Shown: positions 8,360 through 15,807, counted from the stretch's first letter. The stretch: DNA of 64,000 nucleotides from Pseudomonadota bacterium (GCA_039195965.1 JBCCVB010000012.1:1172-65171), one strand, 5' to 3'. Notes: generated by a model not told the origin, from the letters alone. Numbers and translations: made by a program.

Positions 8360-9637
8360 GTGCCTGGCACCACCGACAATGATACCGGAGCATTTGCGAT
8401 CTCTTCCTCAGCTCCGGAACGCACGCCGGATGTGATCACGGCGCTTGATGTCCTGATCAATGAGCAGGCCTTCAAGAGCGGTGTCGGCCGTTGGGATTTT
8501 TTGCGATCCCTGAATGAGATTGACGCGAGCCACTGGGCAAAGATCCTGAAGGGCAACGCGCGCTTGACCCCGGGAAAATTCCGGCTCCTGAACAAGGCGC
8601 TGAGCGAGAACAAGGCCCAGGCAGACCACCTCAGTGAGCTCTACAACAGCTACTATTCCAGTTTTAAGCGCTCATCGGGCAAGCGTTCCCGAAAGGAAAA
8701 ACCGGATGACCTGACCGGTGGACTCGAGCAGCTTCTCGAAAAGCTTGCGGTGCGTCGCGAAGACTTACGGGAAAGCCTGGTCTTTCAGAGTACAATCCGG
8801 CAAGCGATCCGCCTTCCAAGATCTTCCGGAAATTTCGCTGAAGCCAAACGTAATGGCCGCGTTCTGGTGCACGGTCTGCACAACAACCTGTACCGCGTAA
8901 ATTCCGACAAGGTCGAAGAAGAGGTGATCGACCTGATGACCGCGCTTTGTTACGCGGCCTATCAGACTGCGGATGCAGATCTTTTCAGTTGCGTCGTGAA
9001 GAATTGTCACCTGCCGGGCCAACCGGAAAAGACAACTTGCTTCATCAAGGCCGCCCAATTGCACCTGCAACGTCGGTTCAACGAAGTTTTCCTCGGGGCA
9101 CCGATCGAGCAGCTGCTTGACCTGCAGTCCGAAGCCAGGTCCCTGGCGGAAGACTTTCAGGAAAGCAGCGAAGAACGACTGCCAATGGCCGTCATGATCA
9201 AGCAGAATTTCAGCCGCCTGTTTCTTCAGACCGGCGAGGCGCTTCAACGCGACCGCATCACTCTGCAGCTAGCCGTTGAATCCAGCGACAGGGACGGCGA
9301 CAGATTCACGGAATTCCAGGCCCTGTGCCGGGCTTACCTGGCAAAGTGGTATCTGGTCAGCGGAGACCTCGACACCGCCCAAACCATTCTGGCAGACGCA
9401 ATCTCAAGGCTGGACAGAAAGCTCGGCAAATTTCACTGGGCCAGGGCATGTGTAAGGGAGTATCAGGCAGAGTGCATCCTGCAGCAGATCAAACTCACTT
9501 CGCCGTCCGAGGATCTCGCCGAGTCCTGCCTCGGGTACCTCAATGACGCTCTGGCAAACATGCGGGTTTGCGAAAACGTCGTCCAGACAAAGCTTCTGGA
9601 AAGCAAAGCTGCACAGGTTCAGAACCTTTTGATCTAA
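8360..9637 (+). CDS. Hypothetical protein; possible N-terminal XRE-like HTH and C-terminal helical (TPR-like) repeats
   Basis: 425-codon ORF filling an otherwise empty gap and followed by a plus-strand terminator. Domain calls are by eye only. Confidence 0.6.
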   Translation: MPGTTDNDTGAFAISSSAPERTPDVITALDVLINEQAFKSGVGRWDFLRSLNEIDASHWAKILKGNARLTPGKFRLLNKALSENKAQADHLSELYNSYYSSFKRSSGKRSRKEKPDDLTGGLEQLLEKLAVRREDLRESLVFQSTIRQAIRLPRSSGNFAEAKRNGRVLVHGLHNNLYRVNSDKVEEEVIDLMTALCYAAYQTADADLFSCVVKNCHLPGQPEKTTCFIKAAQLHLQRRFNEVFLGAPIEQLLDLQSEARSLAEDFQESSEERLPMAVMIKQNFSRLFLQTGEALQRDRITLQLAVESSDRDGDRFTEFQALCRAYLAKWYLVSGDLDTAQTILADAISRLDRKLGKFHWARACVREYQAECILQQIKLTSPSEDLAESCLGYLNDALANMRVCENVVQTKLLESKAAQVQNLLI

Positions 9638-9874: not shown

Positions 9875-10972
9875 TCAGTCTCTGGCTTCCAGCCAGGTCT
9901 GTGCCCGCGTCATATCTTTTGAGACAAAACCCTCGGCCAGTTTCTTACCAACAACGGCGCCGAACTTGTACCCGTGCCCGGAACAGGCAGAAACAACCGT
10001 TGCCTTGCCGTTGGTTGTCGCGAAAAAATGCTCGTCAGCAGTGAATGTATAGGCGCAAGTGACGACTTCATCGACGCGATACTCACCGATCCGGGCTATT
10101 GGCGGCGAGAAGTAATCGCGCAGTTGCTCGCCCTCGCCCTCCTTCGCGGTTCTGTCCTGATCCGGCTCCGCCTGGTATCTGTGAATTCCAGCTCCGAATT
10201 TCAGGCCGGTTCCCGAGACTGGAGGCAGAACGTAACCGTCATTGGCACCGCCCGGGTCCAGGATGGCGGGAGCCTTCTCCCAAGACTCACGCAAGTCCGC
10301 CGGCGGTGTCAGGTAAACAACCGCAGTTCGGTAAGTATTCAGGCTGATCTGCAACTCGGGGAAAAGCCCGAGGGTCCAGGCGCCTGCTGTTACGATCACA
10401 TGATCGGCAACATGCTTGCTGCCATCCGCCAGCACGACCGCGCCGGCAGAACTGTCGACGGAGGTTGCCTTGTTGTTTTCCAGAACTTGAGCACCGTTCG
10501 CGATAAGCCAGTCCCGCAGATCAGCTGCAATTCTCTGGCAAAGCAGCACGCCACCTTCGCTGCTGACAGCTCCGTAGCGAATGGTCGAGGGATCAATAAA
10601 CGGGAACCTTTCAGCAGTTTCCTCAGGCGACATGTCCTCAAACGGATAGCCGCCATCAATCAGGCCATTCCGATAAACTTCACCGCCGTCGCCCGGTCTC
10701 TGCGACAGCAACATGAAGCCGGTATCTGCGAGGTGCTTACTGCCAAGATCGTCCCACATTTCGTCCCAGGCCTCATAGGCAGCACCTATGCGGCGCTGAT
10801 AGCCGCCCTGGCTACCATAAGCCCGCCGAATGATCCGGTGCTGATCACCTGATGCGGATAGTGGATTGGGAATGGGGCCTTGTTCGACAAGCGTCACCGG
10901 TACGCCCCGTTTGGTCAGCGCCCAGGCAGTGGAAAGACCGGAGATTCCGGCCCCGACAACAATTGTGCTCAT
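9875..10972 (-). CDS. FAD-dependent oxidoreductase, monomeric sarcosine oxidase (MSOX/SolA)-like
   Basis: GAGISG dinucleotide motif, SGDQHRIIRRAYG, TCAYTFTADEHF (Cys at the covalent-FAD position of MSOX) and SGHGYKFG. Confidence 0.85.
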   Translation of the reverse strand: MSTIVVGAGISGLSTAWALTKRGVPVTLVEQGPIPNPLSASGDQHRIIRRAYGSQGGYQRRIGAAYEAWDEMWDDLGSKHLADTGFMLLSQRPGDGGEVYRNGLIDGGYPFEDMSPEETAERFPFIDPSTIRYGAVSSEGGVLLCQRIAADLRDWLIANGAQVLENNKATSVDSSAGAVVLADGSKHVADHVIVTAGAWTLGLFPELQISLNTYRTAVVYLTPPADLRESWEKAPAILDPGGANDGYVLPPVSGTGLKFGAGIHRYQAEPDQDRTAKEGEGEQLRDYFSPPIARIGEYRVDEVVTCAYTFTADEHFFATTNGKATVVSACSGHGYKFGAVVGKKLAEGFVSKDMTRAQTWLEARD

Positions 10973-11089
10973 GAGAAATTTCCTGCGGTATGTCCTCGCA
11001 GATTAGCCGGCAGTCAGTCGAGCACAAGTGGTTATCTCAAGCAAATCGGGCATACCCGTCATACGTCTGTGAGAACCGAAGGGAACACC

Positions 11090-11938
11090 TCAAGCAGCAA
11101 CTGCTCTTCCAACGATTTGACGTCGGATTGATACTTCAGCCTTCTCCAATCCACCATCAGGCGAAATCCAGGCTGGTTCGGCAATCAGCTTTTCGCATTC
11201 AATTCCGACTTGCGGAAAATTCAATCCCATAGAATGGGCGACCGCGACCCTGTCTCCTGGTTTGGGATTAAGCCCGCAACAGACTTCACGCGTGCCCATC
11301 TTCAGATGATGGGCGATATCCCACTCAAGCACCACGCCATTGTGCCGCGTCACGACCCAGCAATGCATGTCGTCACAGCACCCCTTCTTTTCCTCAGGGA
11401 AAAAGTATCCGGTGATGTAACCTGCCTCATAACCGGCTGCTCTCAACGAAGCGATCAGGTAGGTGTTGATGTCCACGCATGATCCTTCGGTCAAGCCACA
11501 TGAGAGATAGGGCACCTCTTCGCAGCCATCGTTGAAGCGCACGTCCGGGTGAGCATATTTGAACTTCTCGGCCACTGCATTGACCAGCGCCTGAATGGCA
11601 GCGTGACCGTCCTGTTCCGTTTCAGCAAGTCTGATGGCCCCTTCCACCAGATCGCGAGCGGCCCTGGTGTATCGGTTGACGACTGGCTTGAAAACTGCGT
11701 CCGGATACCCTGCTCCCCCTTCACGGAAGGTGTATCCAATTTCAATTTGCTGACCGGATACCGGCCTCACGACGGCTGCCATCTGCCCTGTCGAGTTTTC
11801 TCCAGCCAGTGAATAGAGACCGCCCGAGACTTCGAAATGGATCGGCATCTGATGCGGTGTCGGCAATCCGACCGGAACGATCAGCTTTCGAGACGTATCG
11901 GAGTTCGGCTGAACGGTAACCGTGACACGAGTTTGCAT
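11090..11938 (-). CDS. Transglutaminase-like cysteine hydrolase domain protein
   Basis: Cys-His-Asp triad pattern GSCVDIN...LRAAGYEAGYITGY...MHCWV...EWD. Confidence 0.8.
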   Translation of the reverse strand: MQTRVTVTVQPNSDTSRKLIVPVGLPTPHQMPIHFEVSGGLYSLAGENSTGQMAAVVRPVSGQQIEIGYTFREGGAGYPDAVFKPVVNRYTRAARDLVEGAIRLAETEQDGHAAIQALVNAVAEKFKYAHPDVRFNDGCEEVPYLSCGLTEGSCVDINTYLIASLRAAGYEAGYITGYFFPEEKKGCCDDMHCWVVTRHNGVVLEWDIAHHLKMGTREVCCGLNPKPGDRVAVAHSMGLNFPQVGIECEKLIAEPAWISPDGGLEKAEVSIRRQIVGRAVAA

Positions 11939-11948
11939 GTTTCTACAC

Positions 11949-13064
11949 TTAGATCACGAGCTGAAAGACAAGACCGGAAAGAACCGCGCCGACAAAACCA
12001 AGTCCGAGATACATGGCGAAGACCTGAGGCTTCACCAGGGACCAGACCGCTGCCATTGCCGGAATGGAGCTGACCGCACCCGCGATCATGAACGCCATTG
12101 CGGCACCGGCGCTCATGCCCTGATCCATAAGACCTGCAAGCAAGGGCGGTGCAACGTAGCTGTTAAGATAGGCCGGCATCCCGACGAGAGCCGAGATGAC
12201 AATCGACCCGAGGCCGTCTCCTCCGACGACACCTGCGATCAGATCTGCCGGCACATAGGTGACCAGCGCTGCTTCCAGCACATAGGCAAGTGCCAGCCAC
12301 TTCACCAGAAAAAGCGCATTTGACTTCAACTCGCTGGAGAACCTGTCCTTGCGCTCTTCTTCCTGCCAGAATTTCCAGACAGGCCGCCCCGTCAGCGGGG
12401 AAGCTCCGCAGCCGCAGCCTCCTGCGGATGAGCCGACCTTGACCGGATTGGCAAAAGCGCCGGTGCGCAAAAGCATCGAAATCAGAAAACCGCCAAAGAG
12501 CCCGAGAGCAACCGCGAAAGCGGCCTTGCCGATGGCAAACGGCCAGCCCAGAGCACCTGCCGTGATCAGCAGCGTCGGCGGATCAATCAACGGTGATGAC
12601 AACCAGAAGGCCATGATCGCGGACAACGGCGCTCCGACAGCAAGAAGACCTGCGATAAAGGGAATAACTTCACAGGAACAGAAGGGTGCCAGTCCGCCGA
12701 ACAGCGCGGCCAGAAAGATCGCCTGTGTTTCCCGTCCTTCAAATGCCTTGCCGACGTAAGCCTCCGCACCGGCTGCCTTGAGCCAAGCAATCAGTGCAAC
12801 AGCAAAAGCGATATAGGGAAGCGTTCCGGCAAAGGCCGAGATTGCGAAGGAAACAAACCCGGTGAACTGAGTCTGATCGAGCAGGAGAACCAGGAGCGGC
12901 CCGCCGATGACGATCGTCCATGTCGAAAGGAGATAGTCCCTGCCCGGGAAATTCTTCCAAGACAATTTGGGTTTGGTCGGTGCGCAACTGGTTGATTTCG
13001 CCGAAGAACAGCAAGTCTCCCCTGCACTTTCCGCCACTGCAATGTTCTCAAGAGTGTCCGCCAT
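11949..13064 (-). CDS. ArsP/DUF318-type permease
   Basis: Two internally repeated TM halves, with PFCSCEVIP and AFWLSSPLIDP, and Cys clusters TCC and GCGC. Confidence 0.85.
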   Translation of the reverse strand: MADTLENIAVAESAGETCCSSAKSTSCAPTKPKLSWKNFPGRDYLLSTWTIVIGGPLLVLLLDQTQFTGFVSFAISAFAGTLPYIAFAVALIAWLKAAGAEAYVGKAFEGRETQAIFLAALFGGLAPFCSCEVIPFIAGLLAVGAPLSAIMAFWLSSPLIDPPTLLITAGALGWPFAIGKAAFAVALGLFGGFLISMLLRTGAFANPVKVGSSAGGCGCGASPLTGRPVWKFWQEEERKDRFSSELKSNALFLVKWLALAYVLEAALVTYVPADLIAGVVGGDGLGSIVISALVGMPAYLNSYVAPPLLAGLMDQGMSAGAAMAFMIAGAVSSIPAMAAVWSLVKPQVFAMYLGLGFVGAVLSGLVFQLVI

Positions 13065-13083
13065 CTGAGATCTCCTTTGGCGC

Positions 13084-13386
13084 CTACGGACGAATGCCGT
13101 CTTCGTCTGCGCAACATTCCTTGAGAATGTAGCCAGCCAGGTTCTCCAGGTGATCGAACGCCGCCCGGTTGATCACCGACCGCCCGTCCTTTTCCTGCTG
13201 GACCAGCCCTGCGGAGGATAGAAACTTCAGATGGTGTGCCAACGTGGACGCAGCCATTCCCGTGCGGGACTGGATATCACCAACGGTCAATCCTTTGTGC
13301 CCTGCCTTCACCAGTGTAAGCACCACCTGCAGCCGGGCTTCGGAGCCCAGCGCAGCAAACCCCTGAGCCGCTTCTTCCAGAACCAT
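13084..13386 (-). CDS. ArsR/SmtB family repressor with C-terminal vicinal Cys pair
   Basis: FAALGSEARL...STLAHHLKFLSSAGLV...ILKECC. ATG 13386 has a GAGG RBS. Confidence 0.9.
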   Translation of the reverse strand: MVLEEAAQGFAALGSEARLQVVLTLVKAGHKGLTVGDIQSRTGMAASTLAHHLKFLSSAGLVQQEKDGRSVINRAAFDHLENLAGYILKECCADEDGIRP

Positions 13387-13400
13387 TCTCGCCTCACTCA

Positions 13401-13424
13401 ATATAACTATAATTCTAGTTATAT
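13401..13424. promoter_or_regulatory. Putative ArsR operator
   Basis: Inverted repeat ATATAACTA-taattc-TAGTTATAT immediately upstream of arsR. Confidence 0.65.
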
Positions 13425-13515
13425 AGTTATTTTTGATTTGTCAACGAGCTCAGGCCTTTTCAGAGGCATGGATTTCAATTGTGGCGGTACGATTGTTGGC
13501 GAGGCTTAAGGCCGA

Positions 13516-14334: not shown

Positions 14335-15381
14335 TCAGACCCGAAAGTCCGGCAACAGCTCGTCGGCAAGCAGGTTCAATGTCCGCTCCATCTTTGTCTC
14401 ATTGAAACGCAGATTCAGGGCAACATGATTGACGCCAAATGCCTCCAGTGACTTCAGATAGGTTCGCAAGTGATTGACACCCAGCCTGAACCCGAGATGG
14501 ATCGGCCGGGGTGTAGCATCTGGCTCTTCTGCCAGATCAACATAAAGTGGCTGCATGACGGGTTTGTCGTACGCCCCTGCCGACATCACCCGCCGGCGCC
14601 ATTCGGCTACGACGTGCTCTTGCACATCCAGCCTGCGCGGATAAGTCATCCAGCCATCACCGTTTCCGGCGATCCACTCCGGATCTTGCTGACTGCCCCC
14701 GGTTACCAGCATCGGCAATTTTCCCGCAACTGGTTTCGGAAGCATATCAATGGCACCGCTTAGTTTCCCGAATGCGTTTTCGAATGCAGGGTCCTTTGCT
14801 GCCATTTCACGAATGTATGCAAAGCTCTCCCTGAACCGCTCTCCCCGACTTTCAAAGGCAAGGTCGAGTGCGGGATACTCCTCGGGCCGGTCGCCCGATG
14901 CAACACCCAGGATCAACCTTCCTCCGGAGAGTACATCCACGCTGCTTGCGGCCTTGGCAATATGAGCCGGATGGCGCAAGGGCAGAACAATGCTGGCAAC
15001 ACCAAGAGCAATCCTGTCGGTCGCCGCGGCCAGGTATCCCAGATATACAAACGGATCAAATATCTGACCCGCATCCCCAAAAGAGGGAACGTTGAAGGGC
15101 ACATCTCGCAGCCAGACGGCCGCAAACCCAAGTTGCTCCACCAGCTTCACCCGCTCCAGATGCTCCGTCATTTGCGGGACCGGATGGATGCCATAGCTTT
15201 CAAGCGGCAACACAAGACCAACGCTCAACCTGTTCTGCTTGAACACGGAATTGTAGCCTCGGTTGATCGTTTCGAAACCGATGTTTTCCGGACGATTGAG
15301 CACGGCACACTCCTTTCGCAAAGTCTTGCCTTCTCGGTGGAGATCTATCCTGCGAGCATATGCGGCCCAGGGCATTGTCAT
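14335..15381 (-). CDS. LLM-class flavin-dependent oxidoreductase (luciferase-like)
   Basis: WLRDVPF...FGDAGQIFDP and LGVASGDRPEEY. The true start may be about 15303. Confidence 0.85.
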   Translation of the reverse strand: MTMPWAAYARRIDLHREGKTLRKECAVLNRPENIGFETINRGYNSVFKQNRLSVGLVLPLESYGIHPVPQMTEHLERVKLVEQLGFAAVWLRDVPFNVPSFGDAGQIFDPFVYLGYLAAATDRIALGVASIVLPLRHPAHIAKAASSVDVLSGGRLILGVASGDRPEEYPALDLAFESRGERFRESFAYIREMAAKDPAFENAFGKLSGAIDMLPKPVAGKLPMLVTGGSQQDPEWIAGNGDGWMTYPRRLDVQEHVVAEWRRRVMSAGAYDKPVMQPLYVDLAEEPDATPRPIHLGFRLGVNHLRTYLKSLEAFGVNHVALNLRFNETKMERTLNLLADELLPDFRV

Positions 15382-15504
15382 TTGGCCCTGGAACTCGGCT
15401 GCAACGCGACACCGGAGTGCTGTTCGTTCCGCAGCAATCCCGGTATCGCGCAGCAGAAACGGCTACCGCTCCAGAAATTCGCAGCCGTAACTCAACCGCA
15501 GCTA

Positions 15505-15807
15505 TCAGGCGAGGTCGTCCTTGCCTTCGATCAGGAAATGGAAGCTGTTCGACCCTGCAGTTCGCGCTTTCAGATGCGGCGCATATTCCAGGTCATTCAT
15601 GAAATTGACAGCGGCTTCCTTTGACGGCCACTCGATCACGATACGCAGTGCTGCGTCCTGCGCCTCACCTTCAAGCTGCTCGTGACTGGAAGTTCGCGCC
15701 AGATATTTACCGCCATATTGGGCAACCAGTTTGTTGGCCGGGCCGATATAATCCGGAATCCAGTCTTCAGTGGTCGGAGTAACAGCAAGAACAGAGAAGT
15801 AAGCCAT
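15505..15807 (-). CDS. DUF1330 domain protein
   Basis: VAQYGGKYLAR...LEG...IVIEWPSKEAA...Y. Confidence 0.85.
   Translation of the reverse strand: MAYFSVLAVTPTTEDWIPDYIGPANKLVAQYGGKYLARTSSHEQLEGEAQDAALRIVIEWPSKEAAVNFMNDLEYAPHLKARTAGSNSFHFLIEGKDDLA

Follow-up and report, generated by a model that had tools for sequence, protein, structure and literature searches.

A conserved ArsR(CC)-DUF318 permease-transglutaminase-like operon of marine bacteria as a candidate organoarsenical unit

Introduction

AfArsR of Acidithiobacillus ferrooxidans binds As(III) through Cys95, Cys96 and Cys102, and SpArsR, which lacks Cys102, is reported in the account of the same article to respond to methylarsenite, MAs(III), and not to As(III) (PMC11868830). 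Such repressors can be paired with permeases of the DUF318 (ArsP) family, whose characterised members are exporters (10.1101/2022.07.06.499078; PMC8552651) and which have the CSC motif in common with exporters of metals (10.1101/2022.07.06.499078). Organoarsenicals are also built by dedicated pathways. In the arsonate pathway, described in clusters of actinomycetes, BsnM makes arsenoenolpyruvate, BsnN forms the C-As bond to give arsonopyruvate and BsnJ decarboxylates it (PMC12159101; 10.1101/020503), and ArsL together with ArsM makes arsinothricin (PMC8552651). Here we analyse a stretch of 64,000 nucleotides (JBCCVB010000012.1:1172-65171 of assembly GCA_039195965.1; hereafter the window, with positions counted from its first letter) in which an arsR gene with a C-terminal Cys-Cys pair is followed by a gene for a DUF318/ArsP-family permease, a gene for a transglutaminase-like (TGase-like) thiol enzyme and a gene resembling sarcosine oxidase.

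A literature search found no paper joining ArsP or ArsR with a transglutaminase, and none on arsenic resistance in Roseibium/Labrenzia. The papers on arsonate and arsinothricin clusters (PMC12159101, 10.1101/020503, PMC8552651; the supplements of Cruz-Morales et al. lay outside the scope) do not mention a transglutaminase-like partner. The ArsR(CC)-DUF318-transglutaminase-like trio and the arsenic association of the enzyme family appear undescribed.

Results

Three genes behind one operator

We consider it probable that arsR, the permease gene and the thiol enzyme gene make up a self-repressed arsenical operon read from one promoter, with the oxidase gene independent of it. The window lies on contig C12 of a 6.9-Mb Roseibium assembly, and its nearest related loci belong to Roseibium spp. 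An earlier note, made from the sequence alone, had described four co-oriented genes with gaps of 19, 10 and 117 bp behind an operator palindrome and had read all four as one operon, possibly for organoarsenicals. Four minus-strand open reading frames (ORFs) match this description exactly, with 19 bp between arsR and the permease gene, 10 bp between the permease and TGase-like genes and 117 bp between the TGase-like and oxidase genes. The elements, all on the minus strand, are as follows.

13439-13444, minus strand: TTGACA, -35-like element of the arsR promoter, whose spacing to the operator is constant in the majority of some 70 related loci
13401-13430, minus strand: predicted palindromic operator, ATAACTATATAACTAGAATTATAGTTAT, with the core ATATAACTA-N6-TAGTTATAT, overlapping the -10 region as well as the annotated TTG start
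13084-13401, minus strand: arsR, ORF for an AfArsR-type ArsR/SmtB repressor
11949-13064, minus strand: ORF of 371 aa for the DUF318/ArsP-family permease
11090-11938, minus strand: ORF of 282 aa for the transglutaminase-like thiol enzyme, predicted to be cytoplasmic
9875-10972, minus strand: ORF for an MSOX/MTOX-like FAD oxidase, a neighbour that would form a transcription unit of its own

In two scans of species genomes, 88 non-redundant loci were found to encode a relative of the TGase-like enzyme; upstream counts refer to the 82 in which 1.5 kb or more of sequence precedes its gene, and downstream counts to the 77 with enough flank. ArsR and the permease lie directly upstream of the enzyme in 67/82 loci, ArsR only in 2, the permease only in 1 and neither in 12, mostly from one Rhodobacterales clade. 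The 67 trio loci span many marine alphaproteobacterial genera and the trio state fills most clades of the TGase tree, basal ones included. The earlier view of the transglutaminase-like gene as an operon partner of arsR and the permease stands, and the partnership is conserved. The enzyme was found in only 6 of 201 order-level genomes, and a search of plasmids for it gave nothing. From gene order and regulation, the three genes would form a conserved, autoregulated-looking operon of marine bacteria. Within it, a strong AGGAG precedes the permease ATG by 7 nt; the TGase-like gene starts 10 nt past the permease stop and a Shine-Dalgarno sequence looked for there was not found, which suggests translational coupling of this gene to the permease gene.

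The palindrome reads ATATAACTAGAATTATAGTTATAT at 13401-13424 and, in its wider form, ATAACTATATAACTAGAATTATAGTTAT at 13403-13430, and is placed about 9-15 nt downstream of TTGACA. The same layout, namely TTGACA, about 15 nt, ATATAACTAG-N4-6-...TAGTTATAT and then arsR, is common to about 70 related loci from several families; the operator, 24-30 bp long, is kept in Stappiaceae, Ahrensia, Oricola, Bauldia, Cohaesibacter and Rhodobacterales loci, the Rhodobacterales forms being recognisable variants of the same palindrome. It occurs once in the 6.9-Mb genome, ahead of arsR only. The operator, which the earlier note had recognised ahead of arsR, is near-universal in related loci; such conservation across families together with uniqueness in the genome is far beyond chance, and its single occurrence would confine the regulon to the arsR-permease-TGase operon. 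Since the palindrome overlaps the annotated TTG start, and GAGG lies at 13392-13395 with ATG at 13384-13386, the sequence suggests that the true start of arsR is the ATG at 13386, giving a protein of 100 aa.

The ArsR sensor

Assignment of the repressor to the ArsR/SmtB family is supported by NF033788 (66.3 bits, cut-off 55), with PF01022 and PF12840 also above cut-off. Its only cysteines are Cys96 and Cys97, just as the note had it: a C-terminal pair and no third Cys. The closest solved relative in a PDB search was AfArsR (6j05, E 8.5e-10), with CgArsR next, and in the phmmer alignment to 6j05 the ECC of the window protein falls on the ENCC of AfArsR, that is on Cys95/Cys96, with no counterpart for the third AfArsR ligand, Cys102 (CC+6). 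Metal ligands of the alpha-3N and alpha-5 kinds are absent from the protein. The family clearly looks to be of the arsenic-sensing type 2 kind. As far as SpArsR is described in PMC11868830, the window protein matches its pattern, an AfArsR-type repressor without the third Cys, as the note had proposed; in the window strain the two-Cys site would fit an R-As(III) effector.

Among 69 orthologous ArsRs the CC pair is invariant (69/69). The pair stands alone in 35/69, and a third Cys occurs at +4 to +8 in 30/69, mostly at +6, which is the spacing of AfArsR Cys102. This third Cys has been gained or lost between close relatives; the two-Cys state is not a family trait.

The permease and its clade

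The permease belongs to the ArsP family (TC 2.A.119, DUF318), with a PF03773 (ArsP_1) score of 137.5 bits against a gathering score of 32.3, which agrees with the type named in the note. It has seven Cys. Two lie in a PFCSC motif (Cys129, Cys131) kept in all homologues aligned and two in a GGCGCG cytoplasmic loop (Cys217, Cys219) common to all trio permeases, and an N-terminal CC-x7-C tail is Roseibium-specific. At the equivalog level its SaoE (NF040736) score was 57.9 against a cut-off of 325, and NCBIfam models did not separate the three DUF318 paralogues of the genome. The window permease is 57% identical to the trio permease of L110, 42% to the permease of L107 and 48% to the permease of an ArsR-permease pair on plasmid pORIO3; this last permease shares 76-80% identity with the trio permeases of L024/L026. 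Identity falls to 25-28% with the TPFCSCS-type permeases C62p and L095p2, which come from the window genome and from pORIO3.

Members of the permease clade without the TGase-like gene occur on Rhodobacterales plasmids. On pORIO3 of Cereibacter azotoformans ORIO, an ArsR(ECC)-permease pair with a related palindromic operator sits between an arx operon and pst-phoU-phoB, beside arsR-arsD-arsA-acr3-arsC, and the arx-type molybdoenzyme operon comes with a second ArsR-DUF318-thioredoxin cassette; this region is an arsenic island. An ArsR-permease pair likewise abuts pst on a Pseudosulfitobacter plasmid. Such arsenic-island surroundings of the clade would support function, not orthology with ArsP.

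Some further observations concern these loci. pORIO3 (L096) is a conjugative plasmid and its island is compact (record 32-58 kb), including an arx-type sensor and pstSCAB-phoU-phoB; its second cassette runs ArsR-DUF318-thioredoxin-rhodanese-CcdA-CDF-DsbB. On plasmids of Roseivivax marinus (L094:5990-7147) and Rhodobacteraceae SC52 (L099:7965-9125), an MFS transporter gene and not the TGase-like gene follows ArsR(ECC)-permease. The trio permease of Bauldia litoralis (L072/L105, 4993-5983) was recovered in two overlapping tblastn pieces, which suggests a frameshift, be it that of a pseudogene or a mere sequencing error, and a Roseibium metagenome-assembled genome (MAG; L014/L075) shows comparable breaks in several genes.

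The TGase-like enzyme

The third protein matches Transglut_core (PF01841) with 37.8 bits against 23 and has a Cys154-His192-Asp207 triad, invariant in 24 close homologues and, among 82 full-length family representatives, kept at C154 in 78, H192 in 77 and D207 in 80. It has nine Cys. Cys193, right after His192, is kept in 78/82 representatives and Cys147 in 69/82, so both parts of the earlier description, a hydrolase with a Cys-His-Asp triad and extra Cys, hold. Vicinal CC pairs at 187/188 and 220/221 are lineage-specific (Roseibium, Ahrensia, Oricola); the idea that they track linkage to ArsR and the permease was rejected, as they follow lineage instead.

An AlphaFold2 model built from 24 homologues (pLDDT 84.7) has an N-terminal beta-sandwich and a TGase core, with a flexible loop (135-151) bearing Cys139 and Cys147. 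Its top structural match is 3isr of Cytophaga hutchinsonii, an uncharacterised COG1305-type putative cysteine protease (Foldseek E 7e-09, TM 0.54); fold similarity to arylamine N-acetyltransferase is weak (probability 0.35-0.41), and searching the PDB with the enzyme's sequence returned nothing but a chance LysR match. In a profile search of 1.84 billion representatives, 210 proteins passed a threshold of E <= 1e-3 and 83 passed one of 1e-30; the family is small and sharply bounded.

Distant family members and arsonate-type clusters

The surroundings of eight distant family representatives were inspected and are listed here by protein and locus.

P0159 (L101-103), 37% identical to the window TGase-like enzyme: ArsR(ENCC..C), ArsL, ArsM-like protein, flavin monooxygenase, TGase, ABC exporter, ATP-grasp protein, AioB, AioA
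P0176 (L107): DUF318 permease (42% identical to that of the window), AroA-like protein, divergent protein resembling independent phosphoglycerate mutase (iPGM-like), TGase, phosphonopyruvate-decarboxylase homologue
P0192 (L108): AroA-like protein, PstS-type transporter, iPGM-like protein, acetyltransferase, TGase, decarboxylase fused to a 2-aminoethylphosphonate (AEP)-type transaminase
P0220 (L112): LuxR, AroA-like protein, methyltransferase, iPGM-like protein, TGase, PstS-type transporter, ArsR(DCC)
P0203 (L104): MIP channel, LuxR, AroA-like protein, iPGM-like protein, TGase, methyltransferase, ArsR(ECC), TauD
P0160 (L110): ArsR(ECC), TGase, permease (57% identical to that of the window), i.e. 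the trio reordered
P0178 (L111): uninformative context
P0144 (L109): contig too short to judge

In L101-103 the radical SAM protein ArsL scores 633 bits against a cut-off of 450. A bsnJ-like decarboxylase is present in both L107 and L108 and methyltransferases in L104 and L112; among the genes called in L107 and L108 there was no phosphoenolpyruvate (PEP) mutase. A set of AroA-like, iPGM-like and phosphonopyruvate-decarboxylase-like genes without PEP mutase matches the bsnM/bsnN/bsnJ pathway. An MSOX-like gene was found in none of the distant arsenic-linked contexts inspected.

Several of these contigs deserve mention in their own right. The metagenome contig L101 (1086-12950, also L102 and L103) may hold a cluster for an arsinothricin-derived peptide or derivative. 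The bsnM/bsnN-type clusters of L104, L107, L108 and L112 lie on metagenome or MAG contigs of 54-72% GC. In P0184 (726 aa), the TGase domain (residues 11-270) is fused to a full domain resembling 5-enolpyruvylshikimate-3-phosphate (EPSP) synthase, possibly a Rosetta-stone link to BsnM or else a gene-calling artefact. In one MAG (L081), ArsH and the enzyme lie 2 kb apart, a candidate link set aside as too weak, with a transposase adjacent and unknown genes between.

The oxidase and the limit of the operon

The flavoenzyme matches DAO (PF01266) with 138 bits. Its top NCBIfam matches are MTOX/MSOX, below their cut-offs (NF008425 162.9 against 257, TIGR01377 150.4 against 479.65), so that the equivalog level is not reached. 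It aligns full length with solved MSOX (1l9c, 7exs), Cys306 corresponding to the Cys that carries covalent 8-alpha-S-cysteinyl FAD; in keeping this residue it is as the note described it. The protein is best taken as a putative DAO-family relative, an MSOX-like paralogue.

The oxidase gene lies less than 300 bp downstream of the TGase-like gene in 6/77 loci, all Roseibium, and farther downstream in 26, in 22 of which an opposite-strand gene lies between; in 45/77 there is no oxidase within 6 kb. Two further loci with short flanks have the oxidase close to the TGase-like gene. The intervening gene of the 22 Roseibium/Stappia loci is the dimethylsulfoniopropionate (DMSP) lyase gene dddL (PF16867, 136 bits), which is missing at this position in the window strain (about 10973-11089) and in its nearest relatives. 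Ahead of the oxidase gene the following block was found.

11000-11065, minus strand: oxidase upstream block, with a CTTGT/C -35-like element at 11022-11029, a -10-like GCTAATCT at 11000-11007 and a CGTATGACGGGTATGCCCG element at 11047-11065

The promoter-like pair CTTGY-N17-GCTAATCT and the further element are kept whether the TGase-like gene or dddL is upstream. A terminator sought in the 117-nt gap between the TGase-like and oxidase genes was not found, so read-through may occur in the window strain. By comparison across loci, the oxidase gene would be independent and owe its place to genus-level synteny with dddL and speED; a functional tie of the oxidase may be to one of these two genes and not to the ars-type operon.

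Two side observations can be added. In most Roseibium a dddL-like cupin gene (e.g. L003:6854-7543, minus strand) is divergent upstream of the oxidase gene. In the window, a 425-aa ORF (8360-9637, plus strand) matches no Pfam family, shows a faint TPR-like match (NF040586, E 4e-4) and is kept beside the oxidase gene in the two closest Roseibium genomes.

Other arsenic genes of the window genome

Four AfArsR-type regulators are encoded in the genome, two with extra Cys and two with the CC pair only. The first kind comprises an arsR(CC+C) beside an AqpS-like MIP channel gene with two NPA motifs, preceded by two MFS genes (C84:21459-23046), and an arsR(CC..CC)-arsC-arsH cluster (C103:22404-23913; ArsC TIGR00014 145 bits, ArsH 401 bits). 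The Sinorhizobium arsR-aqpS-arsC-arsH system offers an analogy for the handling of inorganic arsenic. By that analogy, the three-Cys systems appear to deal with inorganic arsenic, which would leave the two-Cys DUF318 systems for some other substrate, plausibly organoarsenicals. Both CC-only ArsRs adjoin DUF318 permeases, one in the window trio and the other (SECCLDE) in a pair at C62:19117-20492, where it is divergent from a TPFCSCS-type DUF318 permease gene and has its own operator repeat, ATATTACCGG-N-CGAAATAT, which differs from the trio operator. To the extent that PMC11868830 describes it, the SpArsR-ArsP arrangement resembles this pair. A third DUF318 gene, Cys-poor, lies at C62:~14877-15788.

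Neither ArsB nor a true Acr3 was found when looked for in the genome. No homologues of bsnN, bsnJ or arsL occur there either, and the enzyme would accordingly serve a stand-alone sensor-exporter unit rather than a biosynthetic cluster.

Discussion

Putting these observations together, an ArsR dimer would sit on the operator and cover the -10 region until a thiophilic trivalent arsenical binds Cys96-Cys97 and releases the repressor. The effector would most likely be an R-As(III) organoarsenical such as methylarsenite, because only two thiol ligands are needed. The permease, with its membrane CSC motif and its Cys-rich cytoplasmic loop and tail, would export the trivalent species, and the enzyme, with Cys154-His192-Asp207, Cys193 and Cys147, would act on the arsenical ahead of export. 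Our leading guess is that it turns a pentavalent or conjugated form into the trivalent form that is sensed and exported, like ArsC in arsRBC. Effector, substrate, transport direction and enzyme reaction are all inferred.

The surroundings of the family all need some handling of arsenic species, be it the As(III) that ArsL uses, the trivalent intermediates of methyltransferases and ArsR/ArsP-type proteins, or arsonate products. On this ground we would rank the possible roles of the enzyme, as a guess, in the order of reductase of pentavalent (organo)arsenicals, ArsD-like chaperone and amidase or acyl-transferase on amino-acid-type arsenicals. To our knowledge, a bacterial reductase of methylarsonate and other pentavalent organoarsenicals has not yet been identified, and the TGase-like family is a concrete candidate. 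Perhaps the family is an unrecognised thiol-dependent reductase of such compounds (methylarsonate, natural arsonates, hydroxyarsinothricin) in which Cys154 works with Cys193 or Cys147; this is a tentative idea, which we hold doubtful. If it is true, the reductase would be an organoarsenical counterpart of ArsC, feeding two-Cys ArsRs, the DUF318 clade and the methyltransferases of arsonate and arsinothricin clusters, and it would explain why resistance trios, bsnMN(J)-type clusters and the vicinity of ArsL all harbour members of one small family.

Several points weigh against a three-gene arsenical operon of this kind. The chemistry of the enzyme is pure inference. About 12 of the 82 loci have the enzyme alone and permease pairs without the enzyme also exist, so neither partner is obligatory. 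The variable third Cys of close relatives makes selectivity for methylarsenite over arsenite uncertain. TPFCSCS-type permeases look more like classical ArsP than the window permease does, and the top NCBIfam match of the latter is the SO_0444 Cu/Zn exporter (NF033936). No ars genes were found beside the trio, neither in the window nor in the contexts from Ahrensia and Breoghania, and the distant family members sampled for their surroundings number just eight. Taken together with the CSC motif common to metal exporters (10.1101/2022.07.06.499078), the Cys-rich tails and loops of the permease and the vicinal CC pairs of the enzyme, some of these points would also suit efflux of a soft metal (Cu, Zn, Cd, Hg), in which the Cys pair of ArsR senses the metal, the permease exports it and the TGase-like protein acts as a metal chaperone or buffer. 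We judge this unlikely. The SO_0444 score is 88.7 bits against a cut-off of 300, the ArsR has no alpha-3N or alpha-5 ligands and its Cys pair falls on the AfArsR arsenic site, the enzyme has a triad that runs through the whole family but CC pairs that are lineage-specific, and the recurrent contexts (ArsL, AioBA, the arx/ars island, bsnMNJ-type genes) are arsenic-specific.

The earlier reading would have an organoarsenical demethylated or oxidised by the MSOX-like oxidase and then fully broken down with the help of the hydrolase, arsenobetaine-derived compounds being an example. It draws on the shared orientation of the oxidase gene across 117 bp without a terminator-like structure and on the covalent-FAD Cys. 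The four genes are nevertheless no conserved unit, as the oxidase is close in 6/77 loci and in Roseibium only, is absent within 6 kb in 45, is parted from the trio by an opposite-strand DMSP lyase gene in 22 Roseibium/Stappia loci and has its own promoter-like block, with the operator ahead of arsR only. The demethylase-like step has no comparative support, the oxidase being outside the conserved unit and missing from the distant arsenic-linked contexts, and nothing in the analysis points to arsenobetaine. We therefore regard this four-gene pathway as very improbable, and the sarcosine-oxidase-like gene should stay out of the annotation of the ars-type operon. Of the organoarsenical role itself, the part backed by comparative context (ars/arx island, ArsL/AioBA, bsn-type clusters) survives; the oxidase step and arsenobetaine have no such backing. 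Least probable of all, in our opinion, is an uptake, salvage or redox/reactive-sulfur system, in which the permease would import a thiol or peptide-like compound for cleavage by the cysteine-peptidase-like enzyme. The COG1305-type fold (3isr) would suit such cleavage, export by the permease is a prediction, and some ArsR-family members sense persulfides, BigR being a weak match here; yet this match reaches 25.9 bits against a cut-off of 155, a vicinal CC on the AfArsR site differs from the BigR/SqrR geometry, the contexts are those of arsenic, and characterised DUF318 members export.

If the preferred three-gene arsenical operon is indeed an organoarsenical module, a new and sharply defined enzyme family would join the ars gene repertoire, and the resistance cassettes of marine Alphaproteobacteria would be tied to the bsn-type arsonate and arsinothricin pathways. 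The bsnM/bsnN-type genes on metagenome and MAG contigs that also bear this enzyme would point to a wider distribution of arsonate genes. Moreover, ArsR orthologues that differ only by the third Cys offer a natural test of As(III) versus MAs(III) selectivity.

Comparison with described systems

SpArsR-ArsP of Shewanella putrefaciens 200 (Chen, Nadar and Rosen 2017, as related in PMC11868830) shares with the window a two-Cys AfArsR-like repressor and a DUF318/ArsP permease with a CxC motif, and presumably the logic of derepression by a trivalent organoarsenical and its export by the permease. Going by that account, the window pair differs in being co-directional and followed by a TGase-like gene, in belonging to a separate permease clade and in the variable third Cys of its orthologues; the divergent C62 pair is nearer to the Shewanella arrangement than the trio is. 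With AfArsR (6j05) the window repressor shares the CC at Cys95/96, and many of its orthologues have a Cys at the Cys102 spacing, but it is itself two-Cys only. The SO_0444 Cu/Zn exporter and SaoE belong to the same Pfam family as the window permease and have the CSC motif, whereas the permease scores far under both equivalog cut-offs.

Published clusters for organoarsenicals resemble the distant family contexts rather than the window. In relation to the bsn pathway of Streptomyces (2-hydroxyethylarsonic acid, bisenarsan), family members are found between bsnN-like and bsnJ-like genes, and in relation to the arsQML arsinothricin cluster of Burkholderia gladioli one stands beside ArsL/ArsM-like genes; the contigs in question also hold ArsR(CC) regulators and once the same permease clade. 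The published clusters are, however, actinobacterial or from Burkholderia, and the window genome is without bsnN, bsnJ and arsL. As to the enzyme, COG1305-type proteases (3isr; the TgpA periplasmic domain 6g49) have the same two-domain fold and Cys-His-Asp triad, but identity is 13-15% and the window family has its own signature of a Cys after the catalytic His, the Cys147 loop and WDIAHH.

In its overall plan the operon recalls arsRBC, with a repressor, an exporter and a cytoplasmic thiol enzyme under one autoregulated promoter. It departs from arsRBC in its type 2 two-Cys sensor, in having DUF318 instead of ArsB/Acr3 and in an enzyme, hypothetically a reductase, whose fold is that of a transglutaminase and not of ArsC. 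The trio may thus be seen as the sensor-exporter theme of ars systems joined by a candidate new ars enzyme.

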